A DNA stretch of 64,000 nt from Polyangiaceae bacterium (GCA_033763455.1 JANRKO010000076.1:18836-82835); one strand, 5' to 3'; positions 13,055 to 50,000 are shown, numbered from the stretch's first letter. Numbers and translations: made by a program. The notes: generated by a model not told the origin, from the letters alone.

Positions 13055-13078
13055 GCATCAACTCGCAAGCTTTGATGC
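13055..13078. promoter_or_regulatory. probable vapBC autoregulatory operator
   Basis: GCATCAA-N10-TTGATGC inverted repeat about 20 bp upstream of vapB; further (G)CATCA copies at 13085-13109. Confidence 0.6.
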
Positions 13079-13364: not shown

Positions 13365-13859
13365 GTGGTGGCTCACACCGTGCTCATCGTTCTCGGTTGC
13401 CGGCTAGCACCGGGCGCAGGGGTGCAGGGAGCCATACTTCGACGTTTGGAACGCGCTCTTGCCGCCTACACATTTGGCTCTGAAGCTCAGTTCGTCGTGA
13501 GCGGAGGCGCAGTTTGGCATGGCGTAACCGAGGCGCAGGCGATGGGGGATTGGTTGCGCTCAAAAGGGGTGCCAAAAAGCGCCATCTTGATGGAGGCGCA
13601 TTCCAAGAACACTTTTGAAAATGCACAGCGAGTGGCCGAGCTTCTGCGCCAAACCCACGATCAACCCACCGAGCTCGCCCTGGCCACCTGTGCTTGGCAT
13701 ATGCCACGCGCATTGCGCGCGTTTCGTCGCTATGGGTTGCACCCGGTGGCACTGCCCGCAGTGTCCGCAGAGCCTGCGCGATTTTCAAACAATTTCCGGG
13801 TCGTTCGTGAGTTGATAGCCACGGGCGTCGACACTCTACGCGGTTGGGCGGCGCCATGA
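13365..13859 (+). CDS. YdcF/DUF218 family protein
   Basis: IVLG, RLERA, VVSGG, TEAQAM, EAHSKNTFENA, WHMPRA. Confidence 0.9.
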   Translation: MVAHTVLIVLGCRLAPGAGVQGAILRRLERALAAYTFGSEAQFVVSGGAVWHGVTEAQAMGDWLRSKGVPKSAILMEAHSKNTFENAQRVAELLRQTHDQPTELALATCAWHMPRALRAFRRYGLHPVALPAVSAEPARFSNNFRVVRELIATGVDTLRGWAAP

Positions 13860-16018: not shown

Positions 16019-16076
16019 GGCCACCTCGAGGAAAAACAGTCGCGCCAGCCTCAACCCGAGCCGCTATAAAGCCCAC

Positions 16077-16847
16077 ATGCTGCTCGCGATCGACATCGGA
16101 AACACCAATATCGTGCTCGGCCTGTATGACGGCAAGGAACTCAAGCACACCTTCCGCATCTCCACCCAGCTCGAAAGAACGCTCGATGAACATTATGTCT
16201 TGCTCTCGCAGCTCGTGGCGCTGCGTGGCATCCCGGCTGACAAAGTTAGCGCGGCCATCATTGCGAGCGTAGTGCCCAGCGTCACCGAAGTGGTCGCAGG
16301 TTCGGTGCGGCGAGCCTTCGCTCGAGAGCCTCTGGTGGTAGGTGGCCCAGGGCTGAAGACGGGCATTGCCGTGCGCTACCATAGCCCCCAAGATGTGGGC
16401 GCTGACCGCATTGTGAATGCTGTGGCGGCATTTGAGCGTTTCGGCGCGGGCGCCATCGTTGTAGATTTTGGTACGGCCACCACCTTCGATTGCATCTCGG
16501 AAAAGGCCGAATACCTCGGCGGCGTGATCGTTCCGGGAGTGCACGTAGCCCTAAACGGCCTCCTAGCGCACACCGCCAAGCTCACCCGCGTGGAGATTGC
16601 CGCGCCGCCTGCCGTGCTCGGCAAAAGCACGCCGCATGCACTTCAATCAGGCATCGTGCACGGCCATGCGGCCCTGGTAGATGGCCTGGTCGACCGCCTT
16701 GTGAAAGAGCTGGGCTTCCCCTGCAAAGTGATTGCCACCGGCGGCCTCGCCAAGCTCATTGTGCAGCACACCACCCGCGTCGACGTAACCGACGAAAACC
16801 TAACGCTCGAAGGGCTCCGCGTGCTCCACGAACGCAATAGTTCGTAG
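16077..16847 (+). CDS. coaX: type III pantothenate kinase
   Basis: IDIGNTN, VGADR, VDFGTATTFD, YLGGVIVPG, ATGG, LTLEGL. Confidence 0.96.
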   Translation: MLLAIDIGNTNIVLGLYDGKELKHTFRISTQLERTLDEHYVLLSQLVALRGIPADKVSAAIIASVVPSVTEVVAGSVRRAFAREPLVVGGPGLKTGIAVRYHSPQDVGADRIVNAVAAFERFGAGAIVVDFGTATTFDCISEKAEYLGGVIVPGVHVALNGLLAHTAKLTRVEIAAPPAVLGKSTPHALQSGIVHGHAALVDGLVDRLVKELGFPCKVIATGGLAKLIVQHTTRVDVTDENLTLEGLRVLHERNSS

Positions 16848-27338: not shown

Positions 27339-28811
27339 CTAGGCGTTCTCTTTACGCGCACGCTTACTGAGTGCTCCGCGCGCCAGGCGTATCAATTCGG
27401 AAGCGTGGTTCCGGGCGACCCAAAAAGCCGTTGCCACGTACGCAGCGGCGCCGGCACCAATTTCCAAACCGAGCCTTAACAAGGCGTTCAGATCAGAAGG
27501 CACGAGGTAACGCACGCCCCACACGGCAGCGGCAAGCGGGACGCACGCCAAGAGCGGACGGAGCATCGGGCCGATCAGGTCCGTGGGCGAGATGTTGTCG
27601 GCGCGTCGGACCAACAGGGAAGCCGCTAGGGCATGCGCGCCAAAAGCCAAACCCACCGCGGCACACGCGGCGAGCTCACCCATGGGTGAAAGCAATGCAA
27701 TGAAACCCACGATGCCCAGCGCCTTGATGGCTTGGAGTGCGAAGATCTGCCCTGTTCGAGCGCCCGCGAGAAGGTACGAAGAAAGCAGCCAACCCAATGG
27801 GCGGACCACGGATAGAACCGAGAGCACCATCAACAGGGGAGCTATTCCCTGCCACTTGGCATCAAACAGAGTCTCTACGAGCGTGGCCGCCACAGCCCCC
27901 AGCCCTACGGCTAGCGGAAACACCAAAAGGGCCAGCAGGCCCCCTGCGCGAACGAGACCACGCTTACGCTCCTCAGGATCGGTCATGCGAGAGAACGATG
28001 GCAACAACACGTCGCCGATGTGCTCCCCGACTTGAGCGGCCGGAACGTCCGCGAGGTTGTAGGCCAAGCTATAACGCCCAGCTGCGTCCGTCCCAAAAAG
28101 GGCTGCGAACATCAGATTGTCCCAGCGCCGTGAGCCGATATCTAGGACCGCTGAGCCACCGAAGGGAAGGCCGAATCGCAACAGCTTCTTCACTTCCTCG
28201 AGCCGAAGCCGGACGGGAGTTAACCAGTCAGCAAAATTGACTGAAAAGGTTACGATCGCAGCAACTAGAATGTCCCGCCCGAGCGCTGCTACCACCAGGC
28301 TCATCGCCCCAAACTGATTGAAGGCCAGCAGTAGGGCTGAGGCAGCATAGGTGAATTCCCCTGCCACTTGGCTCAGGCCAATAACCCTGAACCTCATGTC
28401 TCGAACCAACAGGCGCGTGGGGATCCCCCCGATTCTTTGGCAGGCGATCCCTGCGGCGAACCAGGGGATGTACTCGGTAACGCCAGGCTCTCCGAACCAA
28501 GCGCCCAACGGTGCGGCCAGCGCGCACGCGCACGCGACGGCCAAGGCCGCCGCACTCAAGTAGATAACGCTCGCGTGGAAAGCGACGTCTCGCCCGGCCT
28601 TGGGGAAAGCCACCAGATAGTGGCCGACGCCAAGTGTGGAAACGCTGTTGACGGTCAGCAAGATGACCGACGCCACCGAAACGGCGCCGAACGCCGAGGG
28701 CTCGATGAAGCGGGTAAGGACCAGCGTACTTGCTAGGCCAACTGCCCGGGATCCGATGCTACTCGTGATGGTCCACATAGCACCGAGAGCCGCCTTGTAG
28801 CCGAGTGACAC
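27339..28811 (-). CDS. wzx: Wzx/PST-family polysaccharide flippase (paralog 1)
   Basis: Many TM segments; RDMRFR, FGLP, WDN...FG...GRYSLAYNLA, LVFPLAVGL, KWQG. GTG start at 28811 inferred. Confidence 0.9.
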   Translation of the reverse strand: MSLGYKAALGAMWTITSSIGSRAVGLASTLVLTRFIEPSAFGAVSVASVILLTVNSVSTLGVGHYLVAFPKAGRDVAFHASVIYLSAAALAVACACALAAPLGAWFGEPGVTEYIPWFAAGIACQRIGGIPTRLLVRDMRFRVIGLSQVAGEFTYAASALLLAFNQFGAMSLVVAALGRDILVAAIVTFSVNFADWLTPVRLRLEEVKKLLRFGLPFGGSAVLDIGSRRWDNLMFAALFGTDAAGRYSLAYNLADVPAAQVGEHIGDVLLPSFSRMTDPEERKRGLVRAGGLLALLVFPLAVGLGAVAATLVETLFDAKWQGIAPLLMVLSVLSVVRPLGWLLSSYLLAGARTGQIFALQAIKALGIVGFIALLSPMGELAACAAVGLAFGAHALAASLLVRRADNISPTDLIGPMLRPLLACVPLAAAVWGVRYLVPSDLNALLRLGLEIGAGAAAYVATAFWVARNHASELIRLARGALSKRARKENA

Positions 28812-28934
28812 GAGTTGCAGTCCTAACGCATAGGCGCGCAGAGAGCTATACGCCAGCGCGGGTGGTACCATTCACGACGGTCGCTGAAAAGGCGCGCGGC
28901 GCAGCTCACACCTTAAATAGGACGACAGCTCCTC

Positions 28935-30108: not shown

Positions 30109-31140
30109 TTAGGTTCGTGATTCCACCAGCAACCGCTCGATAATCTGGATCACGGGCATCGGATAGAGCTCACGCCCGCGATCGTAGTGGTGGTGCATTC
30201 CGGGTGTTGTGTTCACCTCGTTGATAGCACCCCTCGTTTCAGCCAAGGGCAGCTCAATATCGGTCGTGATCACGTCCACGCCGAGCAGGCGTGAGCCGAC
30301 CACCTGCGCCGCTTGCTCCACCTGCTTTACTAGGCTTGGATGGACATGGTTGACGGTGTAGTCGTAGACAGTTCTTAAGCTGGGGCCCACGCGTTCTGCG
30401 CTTGGGATACCCCTTGCCAGTACGGAACCTGGAGCAGGTACGCTCGAAAGATCGAGCTTTTGCGCACGTAGCGTGAAGTCGCAGTTGGCATCTTTCGGTA
30501 TGCCTGCTTGCTCCAGCAAGGTTTCGACGCGGGTATGTCCGTCGGCCCTTAATCGCAGCCCAGTGCGTCGTCGCGTGTGTACGAGCCGTCCGTCAAATAC
30601 GAGTAAGCGAAAGCACTCACCGGGTATCATCTCTTCAATCATCAACTGCTGGCCGTGGATGGAGGCCAGTACCGCTGCCGGGCGTACCTGGGCGGGTTCG
30701 GTGACGTGCAGTGTGACGCCCTGCCCGCCATAGCCGTCTGCGGGCTTGATGACACAGCCGAGAGCGTGTTTTGCGAGAAAGGAGCGGGCCGCGTCCAACT
30801 GGTTCAGATCGAAGGCCAGGTGCGCCGGCACGGGGAGCCCTTCTGCCTGGAGCAGCCGATGCACGAGGGGCTTTCTTACCGCCAGTTCTAGGACCACCGG
30901 ATGGTCGATCGGCAGTAGCTCTCCTACGAGCCGTAGGCGTTGTTGCCCACGCCTCAACTCCCAAATATCGGGACCGAGCTCCAAAAACTCCGCGTGGACG
31001 GCCGTCGCGACAGCACGCCAAAGCGCACGGTACTCATCCACCCGGTCGTACACGTAACCTGTACCGCGCAAGTCGCGAATCTGTTTTTGAAGGCGGCGCG
31101 CGAGCCTTTCAGCCTGGAGAATGCGGCGCGTTTCGAACAT
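30109..31140 (-). CDS. stand-alone ATP-grasp ligase (CphA/GshF ATP-grasp-like)
   Basis: GLPVP, VIKPADGYGGQGVT, IEEMIPGECFRLLV, GVDVITTDI, INEVNTTPG; no Mur-ligase domain. Confidence 0.85.
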   Translation of the reverse strand: MFETRRILQAERLARRLQKQIRDLRGTGYVYDRVDEYRALWRAVATAVHAEFLELGPDIWELRRGQQRLRLVGELLPIDHPVVLELAVRKPLVHRLLQAEGLPVPAHLAFDLNQLDAARSFLAKHALGCVIKPADGYGGQGVTLHVTEPAQVRPAAVLASIHGQQLMIEEMIPGECFRLLVFDGRLVHTRRRTGLRLRADGHTRVETLLEQAGIPKDANCDFTLRAQKLDLSSVPAPGSVLARGIPSAERVGPSLRTVYDYTVNHVHPSLVKQVEQAAQVVGSRLLGVDVITTDIELPLAETRGAINEVNTTPGMHHHYDRGRELYPMPVIQIIERLLVESRT

Positions 31141-31164
31141 CTCAGAGCTTTAACCCGCAGCGAA

Positions 31165-32343
31165 TCAAGCCGTACCGCGAACTGACTTGAGCATCCACAG
31201 CGCCATCTTCTTGGCGAAGCGTTGACCACACACGAGGCCAGGCAAAGGATCCGCTGGGTTCATCCAGGCCGTTTCTTGAACGGTGCCGTAAGACTTCACC
31301 CACTTGAGGACGTCCAGCGTGCCTTCTTTGTAGTAGTTCAAACTGGAGACCAGATCGAAATCCTCGATTACCCAGCGCCGCCCTTCGATGGCGGGGCTCT
31401 CGGGTACGGCTTGGCCTGTAAGATCGAGGTAAAGGGCCCTCGCTACGTCCATGCCATTTTCGGCAACGAAGATCCTCATCGCCTGGCCGAGCCGTGGATT
31501 GATATCCAAGACTTTGTATTGGCCGTCACGTGGATCTAGCCGATAGCCAATATCGAGGATGCCCTGGTAGCCCACCGCCTGCATGAGCCGGATGGTTTGA
31601 TCGGCAACCGTTTGGTTGGTGCGGCACTCCCCGAGTGATGCGCAGCCTTTGTGCACCGGGAATTGGCGCAGCTTGTGGCCTGTATAGCCAGCCAAACACT
31701 TGCTCTGCGCGTTGAAGTACCCGTTGAAGATGTACACCTGGTCGTCATCCCCAGGGATCATTTCCTGCAGCATTAGGTTGGGGACTTCCGGGTCTTCGTA
31801 CTTCTCATACTCCGAGACCAAATCCTCCCGCGCAGCAACGGGCACCATGCGCTCGCCCGTGCGCTCCTGCATGCGATCCCCGCGGATGCCTTTCAGCATG
31901 ACGGGAAAGCGAAGGTCGTCGAGCGCCGCGATGACATCTTCGACGTTCTGAGGAAAAAGCGTGGTCGGCACGGGAACTTGGTGCTCGAGCGCAAGCTCAT
32001 ACATCCGGCGCTTGTCGGCCAAGCCATGCACCAAATCCCCAGAATTATACGGGAAGATGAAGTGCTCTCGAAGGGCTTCCCGGTTGCGCGCGACGAAGAT
32101 CGAAAGCTCGTCGGACGTCGGAATGAGGATCGCTTTTCGCCCGATGTCGCGAGCGATTCGCAGCAGCAGCGCCAAGTAATCCTCGGGGGCGTTGCGATTG
32201 AACTGCTGGATATAGCTCTGCTTGCAGTAGCGCGAACGCAACGCGGGCGAGTCCGGATCGGCCTCAACAGCGTACAGATCAATACCATACGGCCCCAGGC
32301 TACGCAGGATAGCGTAGCCTCCGAGTTGACAGCAGATGATCAC
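31165..32343 (-). CDS. ATP-grasp carboxylate-amine ligase (D-aspartate ligase-like)
   Basis: RSLG, SRY, LIPTSD, QEMIPG, HKLRQFP, DPRDGQYKVLDINPR. The true start is probably a few codons upstream. Confidence 0.85.
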   Translation of the reverse strand: MIICCQLGGYAILRSLGPYGIDLYAVEADPDSPALRSRYCKQSYIQQFNRNAPEDYLALLLRIARDIGRKAILIPTSDELSIFVARNREALREHFIFPYNSGDLVHGLADKRRMYELALEHQVPVPTTLFPQNVEDVIAALDDLRFPVMLKGIRGDRMQERTGERMVPVAAREDLVSEYEKYEDPEVPNLMLQEMIPGDDDQVYIFNGYFNAQSKCLAGYTGHKLRQFPVHKGCASLGECRTNQTVADQTIRLMQAVGYQGILDIGYRLDPRDGQYKVLDINPRLGQAMRIFVAENGMDVARALYLDLTGQAVPESPAIEGRRWVIEDFDLVSSLNYYKEGTLDVLKWVKSYGTVQETAWMNPADPLPGLVCGQRFAKKMALWMLKSVRGTA

Positions 32344-32405
32344 AACTGGGGTAGTTGTGTCGGCAATGGGCGGTCGCTTGGAAGTCAGAGTGGGCTCTAT
32401 TTGGC

Positions 32406-33143
32406 TTAGGATGCGTTGACGTCGACCATCGCTCCGCCCTTGAATATGGGCACCAGCTTAAGATCGTCGATGTTGCTCAGGACGAATTCAAGGTCGAAAA
32501 CCTGACCTGAACGCCGCAAGTAGTCTGCGCTTTTGCCTTCGCGAATTGGTTGCAGATCGGAGTTGTGCCAACGGTCCACCAAGGCACGCGTTTTGTCGTC
32601 TTCAGCTTCGAATCCGGCAGCCAATAGCTTCTCTGCAATCCAGGCGCAACCAAGTTGATCTTCGCGTCGGAACTCGCCGCGTGTACCGGCACCGATAAGA
32701 GCCACCCGATCGTGGTGCCTTGCCAGGTGCTCGGCCATGGCGCTGTAGTTGCGTAGGCACCCGGCGTAGGTGGCGTCGCTATTCTTGGCGTCCAGCAGCA
32801 AAGGTACCCCAGAGGAAGAGGTCAAGATGATCGGCCGCTCCGGAGCCGTGAAAGCCCCACCGTTGACGGTACTCAAAGCGGTTACCAAGACTGGGCTGTT
32901 GGTAAGATCATACCCGTACGGAACGTTCCCGCCGAGCTCACCGACGAGCAGCGGCTTATCGAGCAACCGAGCCATGGCGGCGGCTTCATCGGTCGATCTC
33001 GCGGGATAGATGCGGCGACCCAGACTGAGGGCAGTTAGAAGAGTGGTCGTGGCGCGGATAACGTCCACGGCGACTACTGCGCAGCCTTTGCCATACTTTT
33101 CGGCACTGGCAGCGAAGCAGTCAATAACGACGGTGCGAGCCAT
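32406..33143 (-). CDS. comB: 2-phosphosulfolactate phosphatase
   Basis: VAVDVIRATTT, GELGG...YDLTNSP, LTSSSG, CLRN, EDQLGC. Confidence 0.9.
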   Translation of the reverse strand: MARTVVIDCFAASAEKYGKGCAVVAVDVIRATTTLLTALSLGRRIYPARSTDEAAAMARLLDKPLLVGELGGNVPYGYDLTNSPVLVTALSTVNGGAFTAPERPIILTSSSGVPLLLDAKNSDATYAGCLRNYSAMAEHLARHHDRVALIGAGTRGEFRREDQLGCAWIAEKLLAAGFEAEDDKTRALVDRWHNSDLQPIREGKSADYLRRSGQVFDLEFVLSNIDDLKLVPIFKGGAMVDVNAS

Positions 33144-33175
33144 ACAGCTAATTCCCTTGTGTTTCGAGTAGCGCG

Positions 33176-33985
33176 TTACTTCTTCGGACCGAGCGGCCGC
33201 AGGTTATCGCGTCGGAATGCATCAGAGTGTAGGCCGCGACGATAGATCTCCACGCGCAGCAGCTCTTCCAGCCGAATGTTGCACAAGCCCACTTCCGGAC
33301 CGAAGTGATCCAGCAACGCGAACTGGCTGCGCTTGTTGGGAGCTTCGAACATGAGCTTGCTCATCCCAAGCGCCTCTACTAGCTCGTCCGCGCCGGCAGC
33401 GTTAAACTTCCCGGTGCTGTCGAAAAGGCCTACATCTTGCGCACTTTCGCGAGCTTCTACGACAAGCTCCACAGCGCCCGCACCCAGCCACTCTTTACCC
33501 TCTTCGATCAGCTCCTTGAGCTGTGCGGGGGTCATGGGCCCGGTGTGCTTCTCGCCGATTTCATACTGCACCTCGAGGCCGATCTTCTCGCCCAGCCGAC
33601 AGATCTCTGCGGGCTTGAGATTGGTGTGCGTGAAGCCTTGGCCGGCCTCAAAGCGCGTGAGGCCAACGTCCTTGCACAACTCGAGGTACTTTTCGACGAC
33701 GCCGAAGGTTGCGGCAACCTCAAAGGGCCCGCCGCCCGCGCAGGTCTTCACGCCCAGTCGATTGGCGGCTGCGATCTTCTTGCGAGTGGCAGCTTCGCCA
33801 GCGATTTGCCAGCACGCCATGGAGATCTTGAGCACCGACATGAGATGCGCGCTTTGCTCCAGATGGCTCTCCGTGGTCGCTGGATCGTACCCGGGGTCGA
33901 ATGGGCTGGTCCGCTTCGGGAGCGACCGAACGCCAATCAATTGCAAGTAGGAGTTGAGACTGCCGGTATTGGTGGGTGATGTCAT
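33176..33985 (-). CDS. comA: phosphosulfolactate synthase (divergent)
   Basis: EIGEK, LGAGA..VVEARES, FEAPNKRSQ, GPEVGLCNI, EIYRRGLHSD; adjacent to comB. Confidence 0.88.
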   Translation of the reverse strand: MTSPTNTGSLNSYLQLIGVRSLPKRTSPFDPGYDPATTESHLEQSAHLMSVLKISMACWQIAGEAATRKKIAAANRLGVKTCAGGGPFEVAATFGVVEKYLELCKDVGLTRFEAGQGFTHTNLKPAEICRLGEKIGLEVQYEIGEKHTGPMTPAQLKELIEEGKEWLGAGAVELVVEARESAQDVGLFDSTGKFNAAGADELVEALGMSKLMFEAPNKRSQFALLDHFGPEVGLCNIRLEELLRVEIYRRGLHSDAFRRDNLRPLGPKK

Positions 33986-34150
33986 GGTGTTACTCGACGA
34001 ATCGGTGTTGCAAGGTCAGTGTCGCAGAGCGAAAGGAAGACCCAAGCTCGCGACGTACCATACGGCGACGCAGGCGGAGGACGCAAGAGCCACAACACGT
34101 GTGTACAAATGCGGCTTGCCAAGGATCGCGCCATGGAGCAGCCTCGTGAT

Positions 34151-34186
34151 GATAGGCTCGGGATAGAAAGAAGATAGGCTCGGGAT
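34151..34186. promoter_or_regulatory. 14-bp perfect direct repeat, 22-bp period
   Basis: GATAGGCTCGGGAT at 34151-34164 and 34173-34186, in the divergent comA / ATP-grasp intergenic region. Confidence 0.6.
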
Positions 34187-34211
34187 GAAACAGGCGCTGG
34201 TCGGCTAACAG

Positions 34212-35333
34212 ATGTCACGAGTTCTCTTGTTAAGTGATGAAGAAGCCAGGGGGCTTCTTTGGTGCGCCAAGTCCGGCGGCCACACCGTCTTCGTCGCGGG
34301 GGATGCGGCCAGGAACCGGGCACTTTCGGTGAGCCCCAAGTGCGACGGCTTCTTCGGGCTCCCGCCCGAGCTGTCGTTTGCCGAAGCCTCCCCGGAGCTG
34401 GCCGAGGAAGTGTTGCGGGTGGTTCTCCGCGAAAACATCGAGGTCGTCGTTCCGTCCAGCTTCGAAAGCTTGAAGTTCCTCGTCCTTCACCGCGCGCGCT
34501 TCGAACAGGTCACACGCCTAGTACCCCTGAGCGACCTAAGTATTATCGAAACCCTGGACGACAAGTTCAAGTTCTATGAGTTCTGCGTCGAGCACGGTCT
34601 ACCGCACCCGCGCTCGCTCCTATTAGCAAGCGCCGAGGATCTCGAGAGCGGGCAGATTGAGAGCCTGGAGTTTCCGTTGCTGTCAAAGCCGTTGCTCGGT
34701 GCGGGGGAAAAAGGAATTGAGAAGTTCGAATCGCTTTCCGCCCTGCGTTCACGCGTCAAGAACGCGGAGCCTGGTTTTTTCCCGGTGCTGATTCAGGAAT
34801 GGTTTGAAGGCGAGGACATCGACTTCAATGGCTACGCCCTGCACGGAAAGGTGGCCGTGTGGTCGGTCATGAAGACGACCTATTTCGGCCCATCGGCAGA
34901 GCCCGTTCGCTTGACGCAATTCGTGCGCAACGAACGCGTGGAAGCCCTGGGTCGGCAGATCGTCGAGCGGGCAGGGTTCACGGGCCCACTCAACGTGGAC
35001 ATGCGCATTCGCAAGAGTGATGGGCAGGTCCTTCTTATCGAAGTCAATCCGCGATTTTGGCACCGGAGCGTCACCTCGCTCATCGACGGGCTCAATTTCG
35101 TGGATGCTGCGATTCGGCTCAGCACCGATCCGGCGTGGCGTGCCAGTTCCAAGTGCGAAGAGGTCGAGTGGGCGTCGAGTATCGGGTTGTTGCTGCGCTC
35201 CGCGATACTGCAGCGGAACAAGGAGGCCTGGCAGCATTTGTCCCGGTTGAGCGGCGTGCAGCTCAGGTATCAGTTGCATGATAAGGCCGTGAACCTGTTG
35301 GCTCGGGCACGCGCGACGCTGCGACCGGCGTAG
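34212..35333 (+). CDS. ATP-grasp domain protein
   Basis: DDKFKF...GLPHP, LSKPLLGAGEKGI, LIQEW, GPLNVDMR, LIEVNPRF. Confidence 0.85.
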   Translation: MSRVLLLSDEEARGLLWCAKSGGHTVFVAGDAARNRALSVSPKCDGFFGLPPELSFAEASPELAEEVLRVVLRENIEVVVPSSFESLKFLVLHRARFEQVTRLVPLSDLSIIETLDDKFKFYEFCVEHGLPHPRSLLLASAEDLESGQIESLEFPLLSKPLLGAGEKGIEKFESLSALRSRVKNAEPGFFPVLIQEWFEGEDIDFNGYALHGKVAVWSVMKTTYFGPSAEPVRLTQFVRNERVEALGRQIVERAGFTGPLNVDMRIRKSDGQVLLIEVNPRFWHRSVTSLIDGLNFVDAAIRLSTDPAWRASSKCEEVEWASSIGLLLRSAILQRNKEAWQHLSRLSGVQLRYQLHDKAVNLLARARATLRPA

Positions 35334-35350
35334 GCATTGGCTATTTGAGG

Positions 35351-36469
35351 ATGCGATCCGCTTTCGTGGGCAGAGCACTGACAGTCTTTCAGCGGTTGAT
35401 GACCGCATTGGAGCGAGTGAGCGCGCCCGGGCTGCTGTTCACCGCCGCAGCCTTTCTACTGCTCACGTTGTTTCCTTGGATGCCCTTGAATCCGTTCGCC
35501 GCTTCGCGCTTCGAGGAGGTGCCGGGCGGCGGTATTAGCTTCGAGAAGCCCAGCCTCTTTCGCTCGGCGTGGGCGCCTGATTTTGCGCGATCCGCCGCTA
35601 TGCGCGAGGGCCGGCTCAGCGTGGAGTTCGATGTTCTGCCAACGTTCTTCGAGCAAGATGAGTCCTCGCGCATCCTTTCGTACTCCGCGGACGAGGCGAA
35701 CCCCATCTTCACGATAGCCCAGCGCCGGGGCGATCTGCTGTTGGGCTACAAGAACGACAGCAATTACGTGCTCGGCCTTTTCGAGTCGAACGTTCGCCAT
35801 CACTACGTCCTAGTCCTCGAAGGTGGCCGCGTTCACGTTTACGTAGATGGGGCGCATTGGCGCACCGAGCCGTTCTACGGGAAAGACATTCCTTGGGGTG
35901 AAGGCTTCATCTCCCTGGCCAATGAGATCACCGGGGATCGGCCATTCGTGGGGAACATCTATGGCCTGCGCCTGTTCGATCGGCCGCTGACGCCCACGGA
36001 GGCCTCGGGCCTTTTCCGCCGGGAGGTACCTCCGGTACCGCACCTGGCGCTACGGCATGATGTGAATGGTCAGAAGCTGACCTTCGTAGGGTCAGGCCTC
36101 GCTGATCTTCCGCTCGAAGTTGAAGCTTGGCCGTTTATCTGGAAGTGGCGCTTGCCCCTGCCAGCGCCTGTCACCAATGCGCAATATTGGCTCGACGTTG
36201 TGCTCAATGTCATTGCAACCATGCCTGTCGGCGCCTGGGGCTTGGCATGGCTACTCCGGCGGGGTCGACCAGCCTGGCAAGGGATCCTGATGGCATCTGG
36301 GTTTCAGTTCGTGCTTTCGCTCCTGGCCGAAGCGTCCCAGTTCTTCTCCATGGGCTTCCGCTTTGGGAGCTGGCTCGACGTTGTAGTCAACGTGAGCGGC
36401 GCAGTGCTAGGAGGCGTGCTCTGGTTAGGCCTGACGCGAGGGCTCGCTCGATCCGAAGGCACCCGTTAG
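35351..36469 (+). CDS. membrane protein with LamG/ConA-like domain and VanZ-like C-terminus
   Basis: TLFPW TM; RILSYS, HHYVLV...VYVDG, FVGNIYGLRLFDRPLT; DVVLNVIATMPVG, EASQFF...SWLDVVVNVSG. Confidence 0.8.
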   Translation: MRSAFVGRALTVFQRLMTALERVSAPGLLFTAAAFLLLTLFPWMPLNPFAASRFEEVPGGGISFEKPSLFRSAWAPDFARSAAMREGRLSVEFDVLPTFFEQDESSRILSYSADEANPIFTIAQRRGDLLLGYKNDSNYVLGLFESNVRHHYVLVLEGGRVHVYVDGAHWRTEPFYGKDIPWGEGFISLANEITGDRPFVGNIYGLRLFDRPLTPTEASGLFRREVPPVPHLALRHDVNGQKLTFVGSGLADLPLEVEAWPFIWKWRLPLPAPVTNAQYWLDVVLNVIATMPVGAWGLAWLLRRGRPAWQGILMASGFQFVLSLLAEASQFFSMGFRFGSWLDVVVNVSGAVLGGVLWLGLTRGLARSEGTR

Positions 36470-36481: not shown

Positions 36482-37399
36482 GTGGGTTGGAAACGAAAGT
36501 GGGCACAAGATACCTTGAAGGCGGCGCTGCCGTTTCAAGACTCATTGAGGCAGCTCAAACGCCGCCTCCTTCCATATCAGACCCATCCGGGCTTTGACGA
36601 GTTCACCTTCGAGCAGGGGCTTGAGCAGGTGCGGCTTTTGGCGGAGGCAGGTGCGCCGCTCGCGGGTAGAACGGTGCTTGAGTTGGGCACTGGCTGGCAA
36701 CCTCTAATCCCTCTGCTGTACCGAGTTGCTGGCGCCGCGCACGTAACGCTCACCGATCAGGAGCGTTTGATGGACCCCCACACTGTGGCCAATGCCGCGG
36801 CCTTCTTGCGGCAGCGCCGTGCTCGAATCATCGAATGTCTTGGCTTGACGGAGGTGGACTTCGAAAAGCGGCTTCAGCTGCCTACCACCACGGATCTGAG
36901 CTCGCTGCTCGATCACCTCGACATGAGCTACCTGGTTCCGTACGAGATCGACCGTACGCCGACCGCTTCGGTGGACGTGGTGACCTCTCGCGCCGTGTTG
37001 GAGCATATTCCACCGAAGGTGATCGAGGGGCTCTTGGTCGGCTTCCGGAGGATTTTGAAGCCGGAGGGTGTCACCTGCCATATCGTCGATAATTCCGACC
37101 ACTGGGAACACAAAGACAAGAGCATATCGCGCGTCAATTTCCTCAAGTTCGACGACTGGATGATCGGCGTCTTGGGCCTGAATGTGCAGAATTACCAGAA
37201 CCGGTTGCGGCACTTCGAGTACTTGGAGTTGGTGCGTCGCGCGGGGTACGATGTGATCAAAGAGGTGGGTGTCGTAGATGAATCCGCGCTTGCCGCCGTC
37301 TCGGGTCTGAAGTTATGTGCGCGCTACGCTGACCGTTCGCCACAAGAGCTTGCGATTCTCACGTCTTACATCGTGGCACGGGTGCGCCCGCAAGCATGA
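36482..37399 (+). CDS. class I SAM-dependent methyltransferase
   Basis: VLELGTGW, VDVVTSRAVLEHI, LKPEG, YQNRLR; GGAGG RBS. Confidence 0.88.
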   Translation: MGWKRKWAQDTLKAALPFQDSLRQLKRRLLPYQTHPGFDEFTFEQGLEQVRLLAEAGAPLAGRTVLELGTGWQPLIPLLYRVAGAAHVTLTDQERLMDPHTVANAAAFLRQRRARIIECLGLTEVDFEKRLQLPTTTDLSSLLDHLDMSYLVPYEIDRTPTASVDVVTSRAVLEHIPPKVIEGLLVGFRRILKPEGVTCHIVDNSDHWEHKDKSISRVNFLKFDDWMIGVLGLNVQNYQNRLRHFEYLELVRRAGYDVIKEVGVVDESALAAVSGLKLCARYADRSPQELAILTSYIVARVRPQA

Positions 37400-43047: not shown

Positions 43048-43794
43048 ATGCCTGCCGACTCGGTCAAACGCCTGCTCCGCCCCATCTTAAGGCGGCTGCC
43101 GTATGCAACCGTGGAGCCGGGCCCCTTGCTGCGCCCCTTGTACGCCAGCCTTTTTCGCGCGCAGTGGGTATCGCGTGAGCTTTTGGAATGGGCCGAGCGC
43201 GCCCTAATTGCAACTCCAGCTTTCCTGGCTCGCTGTGCGTCACACGGTACGGACATCACCTGTGACAGGCTTCCGTACTTGATTGGTAACGTGTCCATCT
43301 ATCTGGGTAGCCAGATACGGATCTCCGGCAAACTCGATATTATCAGTCCCCATTCGGGTGCACCGGTATTGAGGATCGGCAACGGAGTATTCATTGGGCA
43401 TGGAACGGCACTCAGTGTCGCGCGTTCCGTCGAAATCGGGGACTACGTGTCGATTGGCGCCGGCTCCTCGATCGCGGATACCGAAGGCCACAACACCTAC
43501 AATCCCATGCGCCCCATTTGGGAGGTGCCAGCGGGCCCCGACGATGTGGAGTCTGTTGTCATTGAAGATAATGTGCAAATCGGCAAGAAGGTAACGATTC
43601 TCAAGGGTGTGCGCATCGGTGCTCGTTCAGTGATTGGTGCAGGCGCCGTAGTTCGCAGCAATATTCCCGCCGATTCGGTGGTTATGGGGAATCCGGGGCG
43701 CGTCGTTCGCAGCCTGAAGCCCGCCGCTAGCCAATCTTCCCCAAATCTTGCGGCAACATCGGGGGAAGCCGCCGCTAAGGAGGCACTGTCATGA
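43048..43794 (+). CDS. left-handed beta-helix (hexapeptide) acyltransferase
   Basis: IGNGVFIG, VEIGDYVSIG, VIEDNVQIG, ILKGVRIG, GAGAVV, GNPGR. Confidence 0.9.
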   Translation: MPADSVKRLLRPILRRLPYATVEPGPLLRPLYASLFRAQWVSRELLEWAERALIATPAFLARCASHGTDITCDRLPYLIGNVSIYLGSQIRISGKLDIISPHSGAPVLRIGNGVFIGHGTALSVARSVEIGDYVSIGAGSSIADTEGHNTYNPMRPIWEVPAGPDDVESVVIEDNVQIGKKVTILKGVRIGARSVIGAGAVVRSNIPADSVVMGNPGRVVRSLKPAASQSSPNLAATSGEAAAKEALS

Positions 43795-45038
43795 TGAATT
43801 GGGGCGCGCACGATCTCACCAACATCGCCGAAAAATACGGTACTCCGTATTACCTCTACGACCTTGATGCCGCTCGGGTGCACCTGGCTGCCCTGCGCGA
43901 GCATCTACCCGGAAACGTGGAGGTGCTTTACTGCGTGAAGGCCAACCCCAACCCCCGCATCATCACGGCTTTTCAAGAGCTGGTGCCAGGCCTGGATATC
44001 TCATCCGGTGGCGAAGTGGAGCTGGCTTGCGCGGCTGGCTGGTCGCCCAGCAAGATGAGTTTTGCGGGTCCCGGAAAAACCGAGAGCGAGCTGCGGTTAT
44101 CTATTAGCCGTGGGCTTGGCTCTATCAGCATTGAGTCGGTTACCGAGCTCAATCGAATCTCCGCGCTCGCGCTGGAGCAGAAGCGCACTGTGCGTTGCCT
44201 GTTGCGCATTAATCCAGCAAGCGCGCCCAAGGGCTTTGCGATGAAAATGGGGGGCCTGGCTTCTCAATTCGGTGTTCAGGAGGAAGATAGCGCAGCCGTC
44301 TTCAAGCAGGCTCTCAATGCTCCTGGGATCAAGCTTGCAGGCATTCACATCTTTTCTGGCACGCAATGTCTAGAGCTTCCAGCTCTGGTGGAGAATGTCG
44401 AGCAAACGCTGGGAATAGCCGCAAGCTTAGCTACGGCCAATAACGTGACGCTTGAGGAGATCAATCTCGGGGGTGGCATTGGCGTCGCGTATTTCCCCGG
44501 CCAAGAAGATCTCTCCCCCACACAGGTATCGCGCGCCCTTGCAGACTCCATTCTTGCTTTTAGAACTAGGCACCCGCGCTTTGTGCAAACCAAGATTGTG
44601 GTGGAGCTTGGGCGCTACCTAATCGCACGTTTTGGCGTCTACGTGACGCGAGTGGTGGATGCCAAGCTCACGCGCGACCGTCGGTTTGTGATCATGGACG
44701 GCGGCATGAATCACTGTTTCCCAGCGACGGGCAACTTTGGCCAGCTGGTTAAGAAGAACTACCCTGTCGAGAACCTTTCTCGCTCCGTAGCAGAGAACGA
44801 ATGGGTGCCCCAGGAGCTCGTGGGCCCACTGTGTACGCCCCTGGATTCAATGGCACGCAACGTCGCTTTGCCGCTCTGCGAGACGGGTGACCTCATCGCC
44901 GTCAAGAATTGCGGAGCGTACTCCTTCAGTGCGAGCCCGTTGATGTTTCTGAGCCACGCCACGCCGCTTGAGTTGCTCTCCTTCAAAGGTGAGCTGAGCG
45001 TGGCCAGACGCCGTATCCTCGCCAGCGAGTTTGTTTGA
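43791..45038 (+). CDS. fold-type III PLP-dependent decarboxylase (exosortase-A-associated type)
   Basis: YCVKANP, FAGPGK, HIFSGTQ, ELGRY, DGGMNH, GPLCTPLD, GAYSFSASP. Confidence 0.88.
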   Translation: MMNWGAHDLTNIAEKYGTPYYLYDLDAARVHLAALREHLPGNVEVLYCVKANPNPRIITAFQELVPGLDISSGGEVELACAAGWSPSKMSFAGPGKTESELRLSISRGLGSISIESVTELNRISALALEQKRTVRCLLRINPASAPKGFAMKMGGLASQFGVQEEDSAAVFKQALNAPGIKLAGIHIFSGTQCLELPALVENVEQTLGIAASLATANNVTLEEINLGGGIGVAYFPGQEDLSPTQVSRALADSILAFRTRHPRFVQTKIVVELGRYLIARFGVYVTRVVDAKLTRDRRFVIMDGGMNHCFPATGNFGQLVKKNYPVENLSRSVAENEWVPQELVGPLCTPLDSMARNVALPLCETGDLIAVKNCGAYSFSASPLMFLSHATPLELLSFKGELSVARRRILASEFV

Positions 45039-45100
45039 GCTTTCGTTTAGATTTGCCTCAAATCCCCACTTACCACATTGTTGTTCAGGACCCCCGCACC

Positions 45101-45361
45101 ATGAATGAATCTGAAGTCCGCCGTAGAGTTCGGCAGTTCATCGAGAGCACCTTCCTCGGAGAGATGGACCCCTCTGAGCTCCAGGATGATTCTTCCCTGG
45201 AGCAGCTGCACCTGGTAGATTCCATGCGCTCCATGGATTTGATCCTCTTCGTTGAGGAAACGTTCGGCGTCACGGTCGAAAACGACGAGGCGCTGCCCGA
45301 GAATTTTGACAGCGTTAGCAACGTTGTTGGGTTTGTAACAAGGAAGCGCGCCGGAGGCTGA
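45101..45361 (+). CDS. stand-alone acyl/aminoacyl carrier protein (DltC-like)
   Basis: VDSM (Ppant Ser), FVEETFGV, PENFDS. Confidence 0.9.
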   Translation: MNESEVRRRVRQFIESTFLGEMDPSELQDDSSLEQLHLVDSMRSMDLILFVEETFGVTVENDEALPENFDSVSNVVGFVTRKRAGG

Positions 45362-45363
45362 AC

Positions 45364-46950
45364 ATGCTCGTAAGTCAAGTCACGCTGCTGCAGGAATACC
45401 TGGAACGGAACGCCGCCAAGTACGCGGCGAAGACGGCGCTTGTCTTCAAGCAAGAGCGGTTGACTTGGGGTGAGGTGAACGAAGCTGCCGATAGGCTTGC
45501 CAATTGCTTGCGGGCAGCGGGGGTCGAGCGTGGTGATCGCGTCGTTATATACCTCGACAACGGCGTCCAATCGGCTGTTTCCATCTTCGGTGTGCTCAAG
45601 GCAGGTGCCGTTTTCAGCGTCGTGAACTCGCAAACTAAGAGCGACAAGCTGCTCTACATGCTGAATGATTGCCGAGCCAAGGCACTCATTACTAGCAAGT
45701 ACCTTTCACGCACCTACGCGGAAGTGCTGCCTGACGCGCCGCACTTGAAAGTTGCCTTCATCGCTGAGTCTGAGACGGACATCGCGCACGTGCGGGTCAT
45801 GGAGTACCAAGCTGCACTTGCGGCCGCTTCGAGCCTCCCTTTGCCGGTGCGCTCGATTACTGTGGATCTAGCCGCCATCATCTATACGTCGGGCTCCACG
45901 GGCGATCCGAAGGGCGTGATGCTCACGCACCAAAACATGGTGGCCGCCGCGGAGTCCATCACGACGTACGTTCGAAATGTCCATGACGACGTGGTAGTGA
46001 ACGTGTTGCCGATGTCGTTCGACTATGGCTTGTACCAGTGGCTGATGGTGAACCAATTTGGCGGCACGTTGGTGTTGGATAGCTCGTTCAACTACCCAGC
46101 CGCGGTGCTGAAGGTAATAGCGGAGGAGCAGGTCACCGGGCTTCCCGTGGTGCCCACGATCGCTTCGCTGTTGGCGCAGTTCGCCCAAACTGGCACCACG
46201 CTTCCTGGGGTGCGCTACGTCACGAACACCGCCGCAGCCCTCAGCCCAACGCACATCGAAGTGCTGAAGAAGGTGTGCCCCAATGCTCGCATCTACAGCA
46301 TGTACGGCCTCACCGAGTGCAAGCGGGTGTGTTACTTGCCACCCGAAGATCTTGATCGGAAGCCGGATTCGGTGGGGCGCGCGATGCCCAACATGGAAAC
46401 ATTCGTACTCGACCCTGAAACACAGCAGGAAATGCCACGTGGTGAGGTGGGTGAGTTGGTGGTGCGGGGTCCGCAGGTCATGAAAGGCTACTGGGAAAAG
46501 CCTGAGGTAACCGCGAATTGGCTCAAGCCCGGAAAGATCCCAGGCGAGAGTTGGCTGTGGACGGGTGATTTCTTCAAGATGGACGAAGAGGGGTACCTCT
46601 ATTTCGTCTCTCGCAAGGACGACATCATCAAGAGCCGCGGCGAGAAGGTCAGCCCCAAAGAAGTGGAGAACGCGCTCTATGCACTTGCAGGAGTGCAAGA
46701 TGCGGCGGTTATCGGAACACCAGACCCCGTTTTCGGCGAAGCTATCCGGGCATTCTTGGTGCTTTCACCGGGCGTCTCGTATACCAAGCAGCAAGTTATC
46801 TCTCATTGCGGCGCTCGGCTCGAAGGCTTCATGGTGCCGAAGTACGTTACCTTCCTCACCGAAATGCAGAAGACCACGAGCGGCAAAATCACCAAGAAGG
46901 ATCTTGTGGGCTACGCGCGCGAACACTTTTCGGCTGGCGACGAAGTTTAG
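45364..46950 (+). CDS. AMP-forming acyl/aminoacyl ligase
   Basis: YTSGSTGDPKG, SFDYGLYQ, MYGLTE, TGD, SRKDDIIK, TTSGK. Confidence 0.92.
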   Translation: MLVSQVTLLQEYLERNAAKYAAKTALVFKQERLTWGEVNEAADRLANCLRAAGVERGDRVVIYLDNGVQSAVSIFGVLKAGAVFSVVNSQTKSDKLLYMLNDCRAKALITSKYLSRTYAEVLPDAPHLKVAFIAESETDIAHVRVMEYQAALAAASSLPLPVRSITVDLAAIIYTSGSTGDPKGVMLTHQNMVAAAESITTYVRNVHDDVVVNVLPMSFDYGLYQWLMVNQFGGTLVLDSSFNYPAAVLKVIAEEQVTGLPVVPTIASLLAQFAQTGTTLPGVRYVTNTAAALSPTHIEVLKKVCPNARIYSMYGLTECKRVCYLPPEDLDRKPDSVGRAMPNMETFVLDPETQQEMPRGEVGELVVRGPQVMKGYWEKPEVTANWLKPGKIPGESWLWTGDFFKMDEEGYLYFVSRKDDIIKSRGEKVSPKEVENALYALAGVQDAAVIGTPDPVFGEAIRAFLVLSPGVSYTKQQVISHCGARLEGFMVPKYVTFLTEMQKTTSGKITKKDLVGYAREHFSAGDEV

Positions 46951-47051
46951 TTCACTCTCGCACGGCAGTGGCCTGGACGGGCTCGTGGTACGAATCGCCG
47001 AGACGTTCGGTCGGGGAGCACGAAGGCCTGAAGGCGCCTTAACCGAGGGCC

Positions 47052-50000
47052 TCAGAAAACTACTTCGCTCATGCCTGCCTGGCGCGCGGTGGGGGTTCGC
47101 TCTTGAGAGCGTGCCTCCACACGTTTAGCGAGTTCAGCGATTGTGGGTGATTCGAAAACATCGCGGAGTGAGAGCCGGCTGCGACCCGCGGCCGACACCT
47201 TGCTGAGCATGCGCATCGCCAACAGCGAATGGCCGCCCAAATCGAAGAAATCATCGTGAATGCCCACGGCTGGCTTCTGCAGCACGTCCCGCCAAATCTC
47301 CGCGAGCCAGCGCTCAGTCTCCGTTGTGGGGGCTACCATCTCGACGTCGAGCTGGCGTTCCCGTGGGCTCGGAGCCGGTAGCTGCGCGATGTCTATCTTG
47401 CCGCTCGGCAAGCGCACAAGCTCGGCGAGTAGCACGAAATGTTGAGGAACCATGGCCGTTGGAAGCCTTTCCCGCAGCTTCACCCGCAGTGACTGAGCGC
47501 TCACCACTTCTCCGGGTTTCGGCACAACGTAAGCGATCAGCTCGGGGCCCAAACCTTCGAGCTCTCGCACGAGCACCGCACACTCGCCGACCAGCTCTGA
47601 GGCAAGCAGCGTCGACTCAATCTCGCCGAGCTCCACACGCAGCCCTCGCAGCTTCACCTGGCTATCGGTGCGACCCACAAATTCCAGCGCTCCCGAAGCC
47701 CGGCGCCTGACGCGGTCACCGGTCTTGTAAAGACGGGCCCCGGGAACCTGCGAAAAAGGGTCAGGGAGCAAGCGTTCACGCGTCCACTCGGGGTGGTTGA
47801 CGTACCCCCGAAATAGCTGGGGGCCACCGAGGTACAGCTCTCCGACCACCCCGATCGGCACCGGCTCCAGCTTTGGCCCAAGTACGTACGCCGTGCAGTT
47901 CGCAAGCGGCGAGCCGATGAGCACGCGTTCGGGCTCGGTATTGGGCTCCCAGGTCCAGGCTACTGCATTTACGGTGGCCTCTGTCGGCCCGTACAGGTTG
48001 ACGAGCGGAATGCCGAGCGTGTCGACGCACTTCTTTCCGACTGCGTAGGGAAGCTGTTCGCCGCCGCACTGGAAGCGGCGCAGGCTCCGGCACTCGCTCA
48101 GCCGGGGATGTTCGGAAAACCCCTTGAGTACGGCGGGCACCGTATCGAGCACGGTGATCTGGTTGCGAATGACCGCTTCGAACAGCGCTTCGGCATCGCC
48201 GTCAAGTGGCCGTTCGGGAACGACGAGCTCCGCGCCCGAACACAAGGTGCCGAAAATTTCCCACACCGAGGGATCGAAATTGAGGCTGTACTGTTGCAGC
48301 ACGCGATCCCCTGGTTGGAGGGGACAGACGAGGCTCATGGCGTGGAGCAAGTGCGCCACCGCCGCGTGAGTGATCTCGACTCCCTTCGGGCGACCCGTGG
48401 AGCCCGAGGTGAAAAGCACGTAAGCCACCGCTTCGAGTGAAGGCCCACTCGAGATGGGATCGGTGGAAGTGCGGTCGAGCGCTGCTTGATGCTCGGCCAA
48501 CGTCACCACGCGCGCTCCTGCGAAGTTGGGGGTCGGTTGCGCCACTGAGTCCGCGGTTGCCTGCAGTTGCAGCACCACGCTCACACCGCTTTCCTTCGCC
48601 ATCCACTCGAGGCGTTCCTCGGGATAGTCGGGATCGAGTGGAAGATAGGCGGCTCCAGCCTTGAGGATGCCGAGCAATACCGAATACAGGGCGGGCTCGC
48701 GCGGCATGTAGACGCCAACGGTGCTTCCAGCGCTTACGCCAAAGTTGCCCAGCCAACGCGCGATTTGATTAGCCCTGGCGTTGAGGGCGGCATAAGAAAC
48801 CTGGCCGTCGTGGGTCATCAACGCGGGTGCATCGGGAGTGCGCTCCGCTTGTTGCTCGAACAGGTGACTCACCGGGCCGAGCTCGGGAACAACGACGCCA
48901 GTCGCGTTCCATTCGCTCTCCGAAGTTTGCTCAGCAACGCTGCCGAGCGGGATCTGTTGGATCGGGAGGTGCGTGTTCTGAACCAGATCCGAGATGAGCG
49001 CCTCATAATGCGCCATCCAGCGCCGTGCGGTTTCAGGATCGATCAGATCTAGGTTGTGGTCGCATTCCAGGAGGAGCGCGCCATCCGTTTCGATGACGTT
49101 CAATGAGAGGTCAAGCATCGCGTAGTCACGCGGCGTCGAGACGTATTCAGCCTTGAGGCCCCGGAATTCGAGCCCTGGCAGCGCTGGATCCACGTTGAAA
49201 TCTACCGAGATGAGAGTGGGGCGAGCTGGATCCCGATCTACGCTCACGTGTTTGAGGAGCGTGCCGAGGGTGAAATCCTGATGCTCGTTTGAATCCAGGA
49301 GTTGCTGTTTGATTCTTAGCAGAAGATTCGCTAAATTTTCTGCTGGATCGAGTTGGATACGCAGGGGTAGGTAGTTCACGCAGTGTGCGATGAGGTCATT
49401 GGCGCCCAGTTGTGCTTGGCCCGCTGCCGGGATCCCGATCGCGAGATCGCTCTGCCCGGTGAGGCGATGCATCAGCACCGAAAAAGCGCTGAGTAGCACG
49501 GAAAATAGCGTGCATTTCTCTGCCTTGGCGTATTCCTTGAGTCGATTGCCCACCGAGCGGTCGATAGTTTTGGCGTGCCGCATCGAGCGGAACGTCTTCC
49601 GTGCTGGCCGGGGCCTATCGAAGGGCAGCTCGATGGGAGCTGGCACCGTAGAATACTGGTGGATCCAGAAGGCTTGGCTCTCCTTCGCTTCAGCCGATTG
49701 AGCGTGCTCACGTTCCCACTCGGTGTAGTCCGCCAACTGGCGAGGTGGGCTCAATTGAGAGGAGCGACCCGTCAGGTTCGACGTGTACAGCTGGCTGAGG
49801 TCATGAATCAGGATCGAAATCGACCAACCGTCGCAGACAATGTGGTGCACGGTGACCAACAGCTCATGATCGTCCGGGGCAAGCTTGATAAGCGTCGCCC
49901 GCACCAAAGGGCCGCGCGTGAGGTCGAACGGCGTGCGGCTATCTTCCCGGTAGAAATCCGAACGCGCCTGTTCGCGCTCGCTTTCCGACAATGCCGATAG

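Follow-up and report, generated by a model that had tools for sequence, protein, structure and literature searches.

The cassette and its conservation across genomes

Examination of a 64,000-nucleotide stretch from a Polyangiaceae bacterium (GCA_033763455.1, JANRKO010000076.1:18836-82835; hereafter the window, whose own positions are used below) revealed a compact group of genes in which homologs of comA and comB, the first two genes of coenzyme M synthesis, are followed by genes for ligases of the ATP-grasp fold. Five genes can be distinguished between positions 30109 and 35333:

33176-33985, minus strand: comA-like gene, 269 amino acids; PF02679 148 bits (cut-off 25.2); core gene
32406-33143, minus strand: comB-like gene (2-hydroxy-acid phosphate phosphatase), 245 amino acids; PF04029 124 bits (cut-off 26); core gene
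31165-32343, minus strand: ATP-grasp gene G1, "carboxylate-amine ligase", PRK12767-like, 392 amino acids; NCBIfam PRK12767 models below cut-off; core gene
30109-31140, minus strand: ATP-grasp gene G2, resembling the G (ATP-grasp) domain of cyanophycin synthetase, 343 amino acids; accessory gene
34212-35333, plus strand: ATP-grasp gene G3, of a rare family, 373 amino acids; PF02655; loosely linked

As reported in a preliminary description of this DNA, the four minus-strand genes are co-directional with short gaps (comA/comB 32 base pairs (bp), comB/G1 62 bp, G1/G2 24 bp), and the divergent G3 lies 226 bp away. We propose, with a probability of roughly one half, that this cassette would make sulfolactate from phosphoenolpyruvate (PEP) and sulfite and then attach it by an amide bond to a surface glycan, at an amino sugar.

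A protein search with the ComA query returned 5068 proteins at E ≤0.001, the best 120 of which, the query excluded, are 61-72% identical to it. In a genome collection, 298 of 499 pattern matches encode a ComA relative, and the locus counts given below refer to the best 80 of these 298; a metagenome set comprises 80 loci, mostly short, two of which duplicate genome loci. With G1 orthologs counted at 200 bits or more, comB adjoins comA in 79/80 genome loci, G1 is present in 70/80 and G2 in 28/80 (23 at a stricter score), while a G3 ortholog occurs in one genome locus (L053) and in none of the 80 metagenome loci. The three genes comA-comB-G1 are contiguous and in this order in 49/80 genome loci, an arrangement that is thus not due to chance; the metagenome loci contain comB in 66/80, G1 in 46/80 and G2 in 8/80. 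On these counts, the core of the cassette is comA-comB-G1, with G2 optional and G3 peripheral, so that of the three ligases which the preliminary description had coupled to comA-comB, G1 stands as a core partner, G2 becomes an accessory and G3 drops out of the unit.

The cassette is found in Nitrospirota, Acidobacteriota, Chloroflexota, Pseudomonadota, Zixiibacteriota, Gemmatimonadota, Actinomycetota, Planctomycetota, Bacteroidota, Thermodesulfobacteriota, Myxococcota and Binatota, and in one Bathyarchaeon. Glycan genes accompany it in 68/80 genome loci (53 of the 57 loci of at least 15 kb), and initiation or export genes in 43/80; eight of the 12 loci that have no clustered glycan gene are shorter than 12 kb. 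The linkage of comA, comB and an ATP-grasp gene, and the tie to a polysaccharide locus first described for the window, are hence kept across phyla.

No ComA was found in 60 relatives searched, nor any member of its subfamily in 400 genomes of the same phylum, where two matches are only 30-33% identical; the cassette is therefore patchy in distribution and was probably acquired by this genome. Its GC and GC3 equal the genome values, and no subfamily member was found in viral contigs.

A few loci depart from the common arrangement. The cassette of six Terriglobia loci (L059, L063, L064, L069, L070 and L075) lies within a Wza-Wzc-Wzy operon; behind it come an unknown gene and a phosphotransferase gene, and four of these loci also have an FkbM methyltransferase gene there. 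A ComA match of 33% identity in L178 (G296:C14:415374-416093) is contained in an open frame of 526 amino acids, possibly a fusion. An apparent G1-ComA fusion of 1072 amino acids in L058 was dismissed as an open reading frame artefact, its middle being off-frame sequence, as were the long G2 open reading frames of L072 and L007, which are upstream extensions.

The cassette is a real, widespread and apparently undescribed tailoring unit. Neither a sulfolactyl glycan nor this cassette is described in the literature searched, outside which most subscription carbohydrate journals lie; the preliminary description likewise knew of no report of such a modification. Precedents exist for each half, namely PglB2 of Neisseria and misaugamycin B, both discussed below; none was found for the whole.

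ComA, ComB and the nature of the acid

ComA has the TIM barrel of its family, its predicted model (pLDDT 82) giving 1QWG (TM 0.80, E 6e-20), 9CM1 and 1U83 as top Foldseek matches. It is about 30% identical to ComA of M. jannaschii and 25-32% to the canonical sequences compared, which were taken from plasmid records and include that of Xanthobacter Py2. In an 11-row alignment of subfamily and canonical sequences, Xanthobacter Py2 among them, residues K53, E113, E142, E177, E214 and R249 are invariant and K146, R179 and E180 nearly so. They align with K43, E103, E133, E168, E205 and R240, and with K137, R170 and E171, of the M. jannaschii enzyme, residues which we take to be catalytic (Glu103, Glu133 and Lys137 included). 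Changes at the positions of M. jannaschii Lys21 and Arg244 occur in the Xanthobacter copy as well and are thus probably tolerated.

By its sequence, ComB is an ordinary member of its family. D27, R30, G68, E69, N82-S83-P84, E161 and D162, which belong to the motifs D-x-x-R-A-T, GE, NSP and ED, are invariant in 47 rows, and the profile matches 2YYV (E 5e-39) and 1VR0 (E 2e-36), the latter a structure listed with (2R)-3-sulfolactate bound in the accessible part of PMC2954221. Its score against the equivalog model TIGR00298 is 87 bits, below the cut-off of 175.

The fold, the presumed catalytic residues and the ComB partner are shared with ComA/ComB of the coenzyme M pathway (M. jannaschii 1QWG), the phosphosulfolactate synthase of B. 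subtilis (1U83) and XcbB of Xanthobacter, from all of which the cassette ComA, at 25-32% identity, is set apart in a clade of its own with fixed loop changes. Unlike the coenzyme M and Xcb systems, the cassette has no ComD or Xcb partners and is linked to ATP-grasp ligases and glycan genes. Coenzyme M synthesis was rejected as its function: the 43 window proteins scanned include no ComC or ComDE and no XcbA, C, D or E partner, and the 94% complete genome gave no match to the ComD model TIGR03845 (ComC itself was not searched genome-wide). The same 43 proteins include no sulfur-assimilation family, which bears out the earlier statement that the window holds neither comC/comDE nor genes for sulfite supply; CysD- and CysH-like genes, which could provide sulfite, lie elsewhere in the genome.

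That sulfite is the nucleophile of ComA is suggested by family, fold and residues, and four features of the subfamily weigh against it. First, ComA reaches 146 bits with the equivalog model TIGR03849, whose cut-off is 280. Second, the canonical loops KFG-W/F-GTS, GGT and EISDG are replaced by KxSMACW, GGGxFE and EAGEG-type sequences: K-x-S-M-A-C/T-W and FDPG are fixed in 82/82 subfamily rows and GGGxFE in 75/82, and the canonical motif E-I/V-S-D/N/S-G is found in 0/82 of these rows versus 5/5 canonical ones, the canonical rows showing the opposite pattern throughout. Such changes in the active-site loops, at positions 55-59, 86-87 and 114-116, could alter the nucleophile site. Third, the 82 rows form in a quick tree one clade (SH-aLRT 99) with a very long branch to canonical ComA; on sequence grounds they are a distinct and divergent subfamily of phosphosulfolactate synthase. 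Fourth, among the annotated neighbours, genes for sulfite supply or for sulfonates do not recur next to the cassette.

The three fixed loop changes, the long branch and the missing sulfur-supply neighbours would also fit an enzyme that uses an amine (glutamate, for instance), a thiol or water in place of sulfite as the nucleophile added to PEP, in which case G1 would attach another 3-substituted lactate, of the isoserine or thioether type, or L-glycerate. The plant protein HSA32, a family member of unclear function according to the accessible text of bioRxiv 2024.10.15.618377, leaves room for such chemistry. We consider this alternative unlikely, as the presumed catalytic residues are retained and the ComA homologs reported as assayed in the available part of PMC9457059 all use sulfite; plain glycerate, in our own reasoning, is also unlikely to require the inverting partners described below, D-glycerate arising from central metabolism. 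If it were nevertheless correct, a large ComA subfamily labelled phosphosulfolactate synthase would be misannotated and would perform new PEP chemistry.

Both possibilities find a point of support in Streptomyces, six plasmids of which carry a subfamily member of 51% identity. On NZ_CP108119 (L082 14965-15762 and L094 16941-18946), from the cultured strain Streptomyces sp. NBC_00211, the gene (OG820_RS01440; also given as 49% identical) lies inside a nonribosomal peptide synthetase (NRPS) cluster with an SbnB-family gene (TIGR03944 327.5 bits, cut-off 326.9) immediately before it, and no ComB match was found on that record. SbnB-type enzymes cleave glutamate adducts, and with such a neighbour an amine remains a candidate nucleophile. 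The same cluster encodes a histidine phosphatase and a cysteate synthase above cut-off (TIGR03844 430 bits, cut-off 325), which ties it to sulfite chemistry and speaks against another nucleophile; the cluster may encode a sulfonated lipopeptide. It further holds Hpg and Dpg genes and a kinase/cysteine-synthase/ATP-grasp/lyase set, with a class V lanthipeptide cluster immediately upstream of it. A rough reading of its NRPS adenylation pockets, which suggested two aspartate-like modules, was too weak to be used.

A different departure from the proposed route would make sulfolactate an intermediate, either oxidised to sulfopyruvate and converted to cysteate, or shortened to sulfoacetate, with that acid being ligated. 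Cysteate mimics aspartate, and one cluster of G1 look-alikes is labelled "putative D-aspartate ligase"; genes for an FMN oxidase and a dehydrogenase occur in 5 loci and DegT-type aminotransferases in 15, and the single-histidine LarA proteins described below might oxidise rather than racemise. The closest biochemical parallel is misaugamycin B of Streptomyces, for which the accessible text of PMC9136965 proposes that a ComA homolog encoded in misNOPQ supplies a sulfoacetyl amide, sulfite feeding favouring the sulfonated product. Cassette and misNOPQ are alike in that a ComA homolog is the proposed source of a sulfonated N-acyl group; they differ in that the sulfoacetyl group is put on a peptide by way of an acyl carrier protein (ACP) and an acyl-CoA ligase, no ComB or ATP-grasp enzyme being named in that part of the report. 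As a dehydrogenase or decarboxylase is not a constant partner of the three-gene core, and this genome gave no ComD match, we judge a downstream acid to be improbable.

The ligases and the proposed acylation of a glycan amine

G1 has a three-domain, biotin-carboxylase/PurK-like ATP-grasp fold (model pLDDT 93), in which the ATP-binding lysines K111 and K151 and the metal-binding motif D280-x-N282 are invariant. No close solved structure was found, the best match being 2PN1 (Z 27) at 19% identity, so that no substrate can be transferred to it. The first strand and conserved N-terminal motif begin 2-3 codons upstream of the called GTG, and positions 32343-32405 contain no common in-frame start codon; translation may instead begin at a rarer codon.

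Orthologs of G1, 39-60% identical to it, follow comA-comB across more than 10 phyla, contiguously in 49/80 loci. This conservation leaves very little probability to the view that comA-comB make sulfolactate as a free solute, as in Bacillus spores, or that ComA is non-catalytic, the ligases being unrelated glycan-tailoring genes. That view would account for the ligase-free comA-comB pairs that exist in Brevibacillus, and would again find an analogy in HSA32 and its unclear function (bioRxiv 2024.10.15.618377, accessible part).

In G2, residues K90, K132 and E308-x-N310 are invariant. Its 343 amino acids correspond to the G domain alone and not to a full N-G-M cyanophycin synthetase (TIGR02068 110 bits, cut-off 850), and they match PDB 7LGM at E 9e-21; this resemblance to the peptide-forming domain of cyanophycin synthetase would suit the addition of an amino-acid linker. 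G3 has 18 close relatives at 37-54% identity in the protein search, and in L053 its ortholog shares a strand with G1, G2, CapA and a Wzx flippase. It probably handles a further acyl group destined for the same glycan.

Structural look-alikes of G1 in the Atlas are annotated as "carboxylate-amine ligases". One Atlas cluster of 50 members fuses a G1-like ligase to a polysaccharide deacetylase (TM 0.97), and another, of 54 members, fuses one to a methyltransferase. On a Priestia plasmid (NZ_CP127877, L181 6998-11196), an operon amid spore-coat genes encodes a PIG-L deacetylase, a GT4 glycosyltransferase, a G1-like ligase 28% identical to G1 and a phosphotransferase. Together with the deacetylase-ligase fusions, this operon fits a scheme in which an amine is freed and then re-acylated. 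Similar ligases are found on 37 Priestia plasmid records.

Two observations on the ligase step count against the proposal. No comA is annotated within the 19 kb shown of the Priestia plasmid, so distant G1 relatives work without comA and the G1 family alone does not imply sulfolactate. A polysaccharide deacetylase, moreover, lies near the cassette in just 33/80 loci (41/80 if sugar aminotransferases are counted too), which indicates that the source of the amine varies. The idea that deacetylases free the accepting amine, put forward from the window alone, thus draws support from the fused ligases and is not borne out as a general rule for the cassette.

The pathway that we propose would run in the cytoplasm. 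ComA would add sulfite to PEP to give phosphosulfolactate, the fold and family being established and the substrate presumed; ComB would take off the phosphate, a reaction predicted from its family, to yield sulfolactate. G1, to judge from its fold, linkage and fusions, would then activate the carboxylate as an acyl phosphate and join it to the free amine of a nucleotide sugar or a lipid-linked repeat unit, this amine being provided by a deacetylase or a sugar aminotransferase, and a Wzx flippase would flip the acylated unit outward. Consistent with an action ahead of flipping, a crude scan of the ligases and deacetylases of the window detected no clear membrane segment and no strongly hydrophobic N-terminus. 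Three additions would be optional: an amino-acid linker or second residue put on by G2 as a peptide-forming ligase, methylation of the acyl group by a methyltransferase, and, in about one third of loci elsewhere, inversion of the carbon beside the carboxylate by a LarA-like protein, a CapA-like protein or an oxidase/dehydrogenase pair.

Uronic acids, phosphate, pyruvate and O-sulfate are known sources of negative charge on microbial glycans. A C-sulfonate acyl group, if the proposal is true, would resist hydrolysis, keep its full charge whatever the pH and escape sulfatases, and would affect metal binding, phage recognition and the properties of biofilms. Given the number of phyla concerned, the cassette could then genuinely feed bound sulfonate into soils and sediments.

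So composed, the cassette would resemble the opening two reactions of coenzyme M synthesis (PMC9457059) coupled to an acylation like that of Neisseria PglB2 (PMC11130364), both as described in the accessible parts of these reports. PglB2, an ATP-grasp/phosphoglycosyl transferase, makes an N-glyceroyl sugar, glyceramido-acetamido-trideoxyhexose, its ATP-grasp domain amidating an amino sugar with a C3 2-hydroxy acid; the likeness to G1 would be one of reaction. The two differ in that the acid of PglB2 is glycerate, for which the same text indicates no dedicated synthase, and that its sugar goes onto pilin.

Accessory partners and the surrounding polysaccharide locus

Accessory genes were counted in the 80 genome loci by domain only. 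A LarA-like protein is encoded in 16/80, a pair of FMN L-2-hydroxy-acid oxidase and D-2-hydroxy-acid dehydrogenase in 5/80 and a CapA/PGA_cap protein of the MslH kind in 7/80; any one of these occurs in 28/80 loci and never two in the same locus, and the metagenome loci, with 13, 2 and 2 respectively, again show no overlap. Methyltransferases of two kinds are present in 17 and 28 loci (45/80 in total) and never together, and methyltransferase fusions were found both with G1 (L062 and L018) and with CapA/PGA_cap (L038 15412-17364 and L042 12272-14224). Since each of the three partners can invert or redox-cycle the carbon beside a carboxylate, they suggest, together with the methyltransferases, that the product is a 2-hydroxy acid which sometimes becomes inverted and is often methylated.

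The best model for the cassette LarA (e.g. L021 13957-15315) is the malate racemase LarAH6, whose substrate malate has a shape like that of sulfolactate. LarA homologs racemise 2-hydroxy acids (PMC11770544, accessible part), and like these nickel-pincer racemases the cassette LarA keeps the first catalytic histidine and the Lys/His/Arg motifs that bind the cofactor. LarC was detected in 3/5 incomplete genomes checked, including 2/4 of those with a LarA-like gene. CapA, for its part, keeps the GD, NLE, NNH and GHGPH motifs when aligned to MslH, a CapA homolog that epimerises the carbon adjoining the free carboxylate of peptide C-termini (PMC8179263, accessible part). All 7 CapA loci carry G2, as do both complete metagenome CapA loci, and G2 is accompanied by CapA or LarA in 16/28 loci. 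In two Nitrospira loci, L035 and L036, which have identical ComA rows, DNA of 84-92% identity flanks a 3.5-kb block that reads G2-acyltransferase-CapA in the former (12978-16453) and acyltransferase-LarA-G2 in the latter (12775-16366), a direct in-place swap of CapA and LarA.

These data suggest a wider reading, which we hold tentatively and think rather less than likely: a widespread mobile pathway that places N-sulfolactyl C-sulfonates on surface polysaccharides, with handedness and methylation tuned by interchangeable partners. It is similarly doubtful, within that reading, that three unrelated inverters are employed, namely a single-histidine nickel-pincer LarA, a CapA/MslH-type epimerase and an L-oxidase with a D-dehydrogenase. 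Inversion by LarA in particular is called into question by the second catalytic histidine, which differs from that of the racemases in being replaced by Gln or Asn in 16/16 cassette proteins; single-histidine members are described in the accessible part of PMC12611868 as uncharacterised, one of them being without lactate racemase activity. The statistics do not favour it either, as the exclusion of CapA and LarA taken alone (0/7 overlap) has p 0.33, which is not significant, and tree-aware tests on independent pairs (CapA-G2, G2-inverter, CapA-LarA and the two methyltransferases) have 4-7 pairs each, below the reach of significance. The exclusion of G2 and the methyltransferase MT11 (0/23) was set aside, as it follows kinship, MT11 lying almost wholly within one clade of 44 rows. 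Should the wider reading hold, the single-histidine LarA subfamily, and a CapA-type epimerase acting on something other than peptides, would have their first substrates, and organosulfonates in soils and sediments would have a new biological origin.

The constant company of CapA and G2 (7/7 loci, and both complete metagenome ones) raises the question of the acceptor. Sulfolactate could be made as proposed and attached to something other than a glycan: G2 might build a peptide or polyamide that receives it, or the acceptor might be a lipid, a protein or a small metabolite, the glycan locus being a mere lodging site. MslH-type CapA acts on peptide C-termini (PMC8179263), and epimerisation of the end by CapA has been proposed for poly-gamma-glutamate; G2 resembles cyanophycin synthetase, the window contains NRPS and polyketide synthase (PKS) genes, the Streptomyces member serves a peptide, and 12/80 loci have no clustered glycan gene, albeit that 8 of those are under 12 kb. 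We find this quite unlikely, given that glycan genes flank the cassette in 53/57 long loci from unrelated phyla, that G1-like ligases are fused to polysaccharide deacetylases, and that G1 mostly occurs without G2 (70 versus 28 of 80). A glycan amine remains the acceptor that we prefer.

In the window itself, the cassette is surrounded by the following genes:

27339-28871, minus strand: Wzx-type flippase; PF13440 154 bits
28996-30087, plus strand: NDP-sugar epimerase/dehydratase, convergent with G2; PF01370 196 bits; true start probably near 29146
35345-36469, plus strand: LamG + VanZ membrane protein, starting 11 bp after G3; PF13385, PF04892
36482-37399, plus strand: SAM methyltransferase; PF13489
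37413-38444, minus strand: NodB-type polysaccharide deacetylase, candidate source of a free amine; PF01522 80 bits
40424-42133, plus strand: GT2 glycosyltransferase-formyltransferase fusion; PF00535 + PF00551
42130-42978, plus strand: polysaccharide deacetylase of the XrtA system, second candidate amine source; TIGR03006 336 bits (cut-off 276)
62140-63699, plus strand: second Wzx-type flippase, at the contig end; PF13440 152 bits

The glycan genes of the setting already assigned to the window are genuine by Pfam, which detects two Wzx flippases, one glycosyltransferase (the GT2 fusion), the epimerase and the deacetylases, and an acetyltransferase gene as well. No initiating transferase, Wzy or Wzc is encoded in the window, contig C76 stopping at position 64000; homologs of the initiating transferase and of Wzc are located on contigs C47 and C7. 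The N-terminus of the NodB deacetylase is not strongly hydrophobic, and the GT2-formyltransferase fusion had no match at E 1e-30 in 40 relatives. The methyltransferase at 36482-37399 is likely co-transcribed with G3; it had no match in the fetched loci at E 1e-10 and is not orthologous to the two cassette-associated types. None of the cassette-type LarA, CapA or oxidase/dehydrogenase partners was found in this genome, PGA_cap gave no match in it, and its Lar_N gene on contig C27 was rejected as a cassette LarA, being of a distant type (25% identity) in a different context.

Between the two Wzx flippases, positions 43791-62115 encode an exosortase-associated PLP decarboxylase, an ACP and an acyl-CoA ligase, all below their cut-offs, along with an NRPS-PKS of 3253 amino acids that includes an aminotransferase domain, a pair of exosortase-type hydrolases and an NRPS of one module. 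A further acyl group of the same glycan may come from this assembly line. Finally, an MXAN_5187 domain, which suggests a myxobacterial origin, was detected among the window proteins, and positions 751-7511 hold genes for two DUF1592/DUF1588 proteins, a DUF1552 protein and a LacI regulator.

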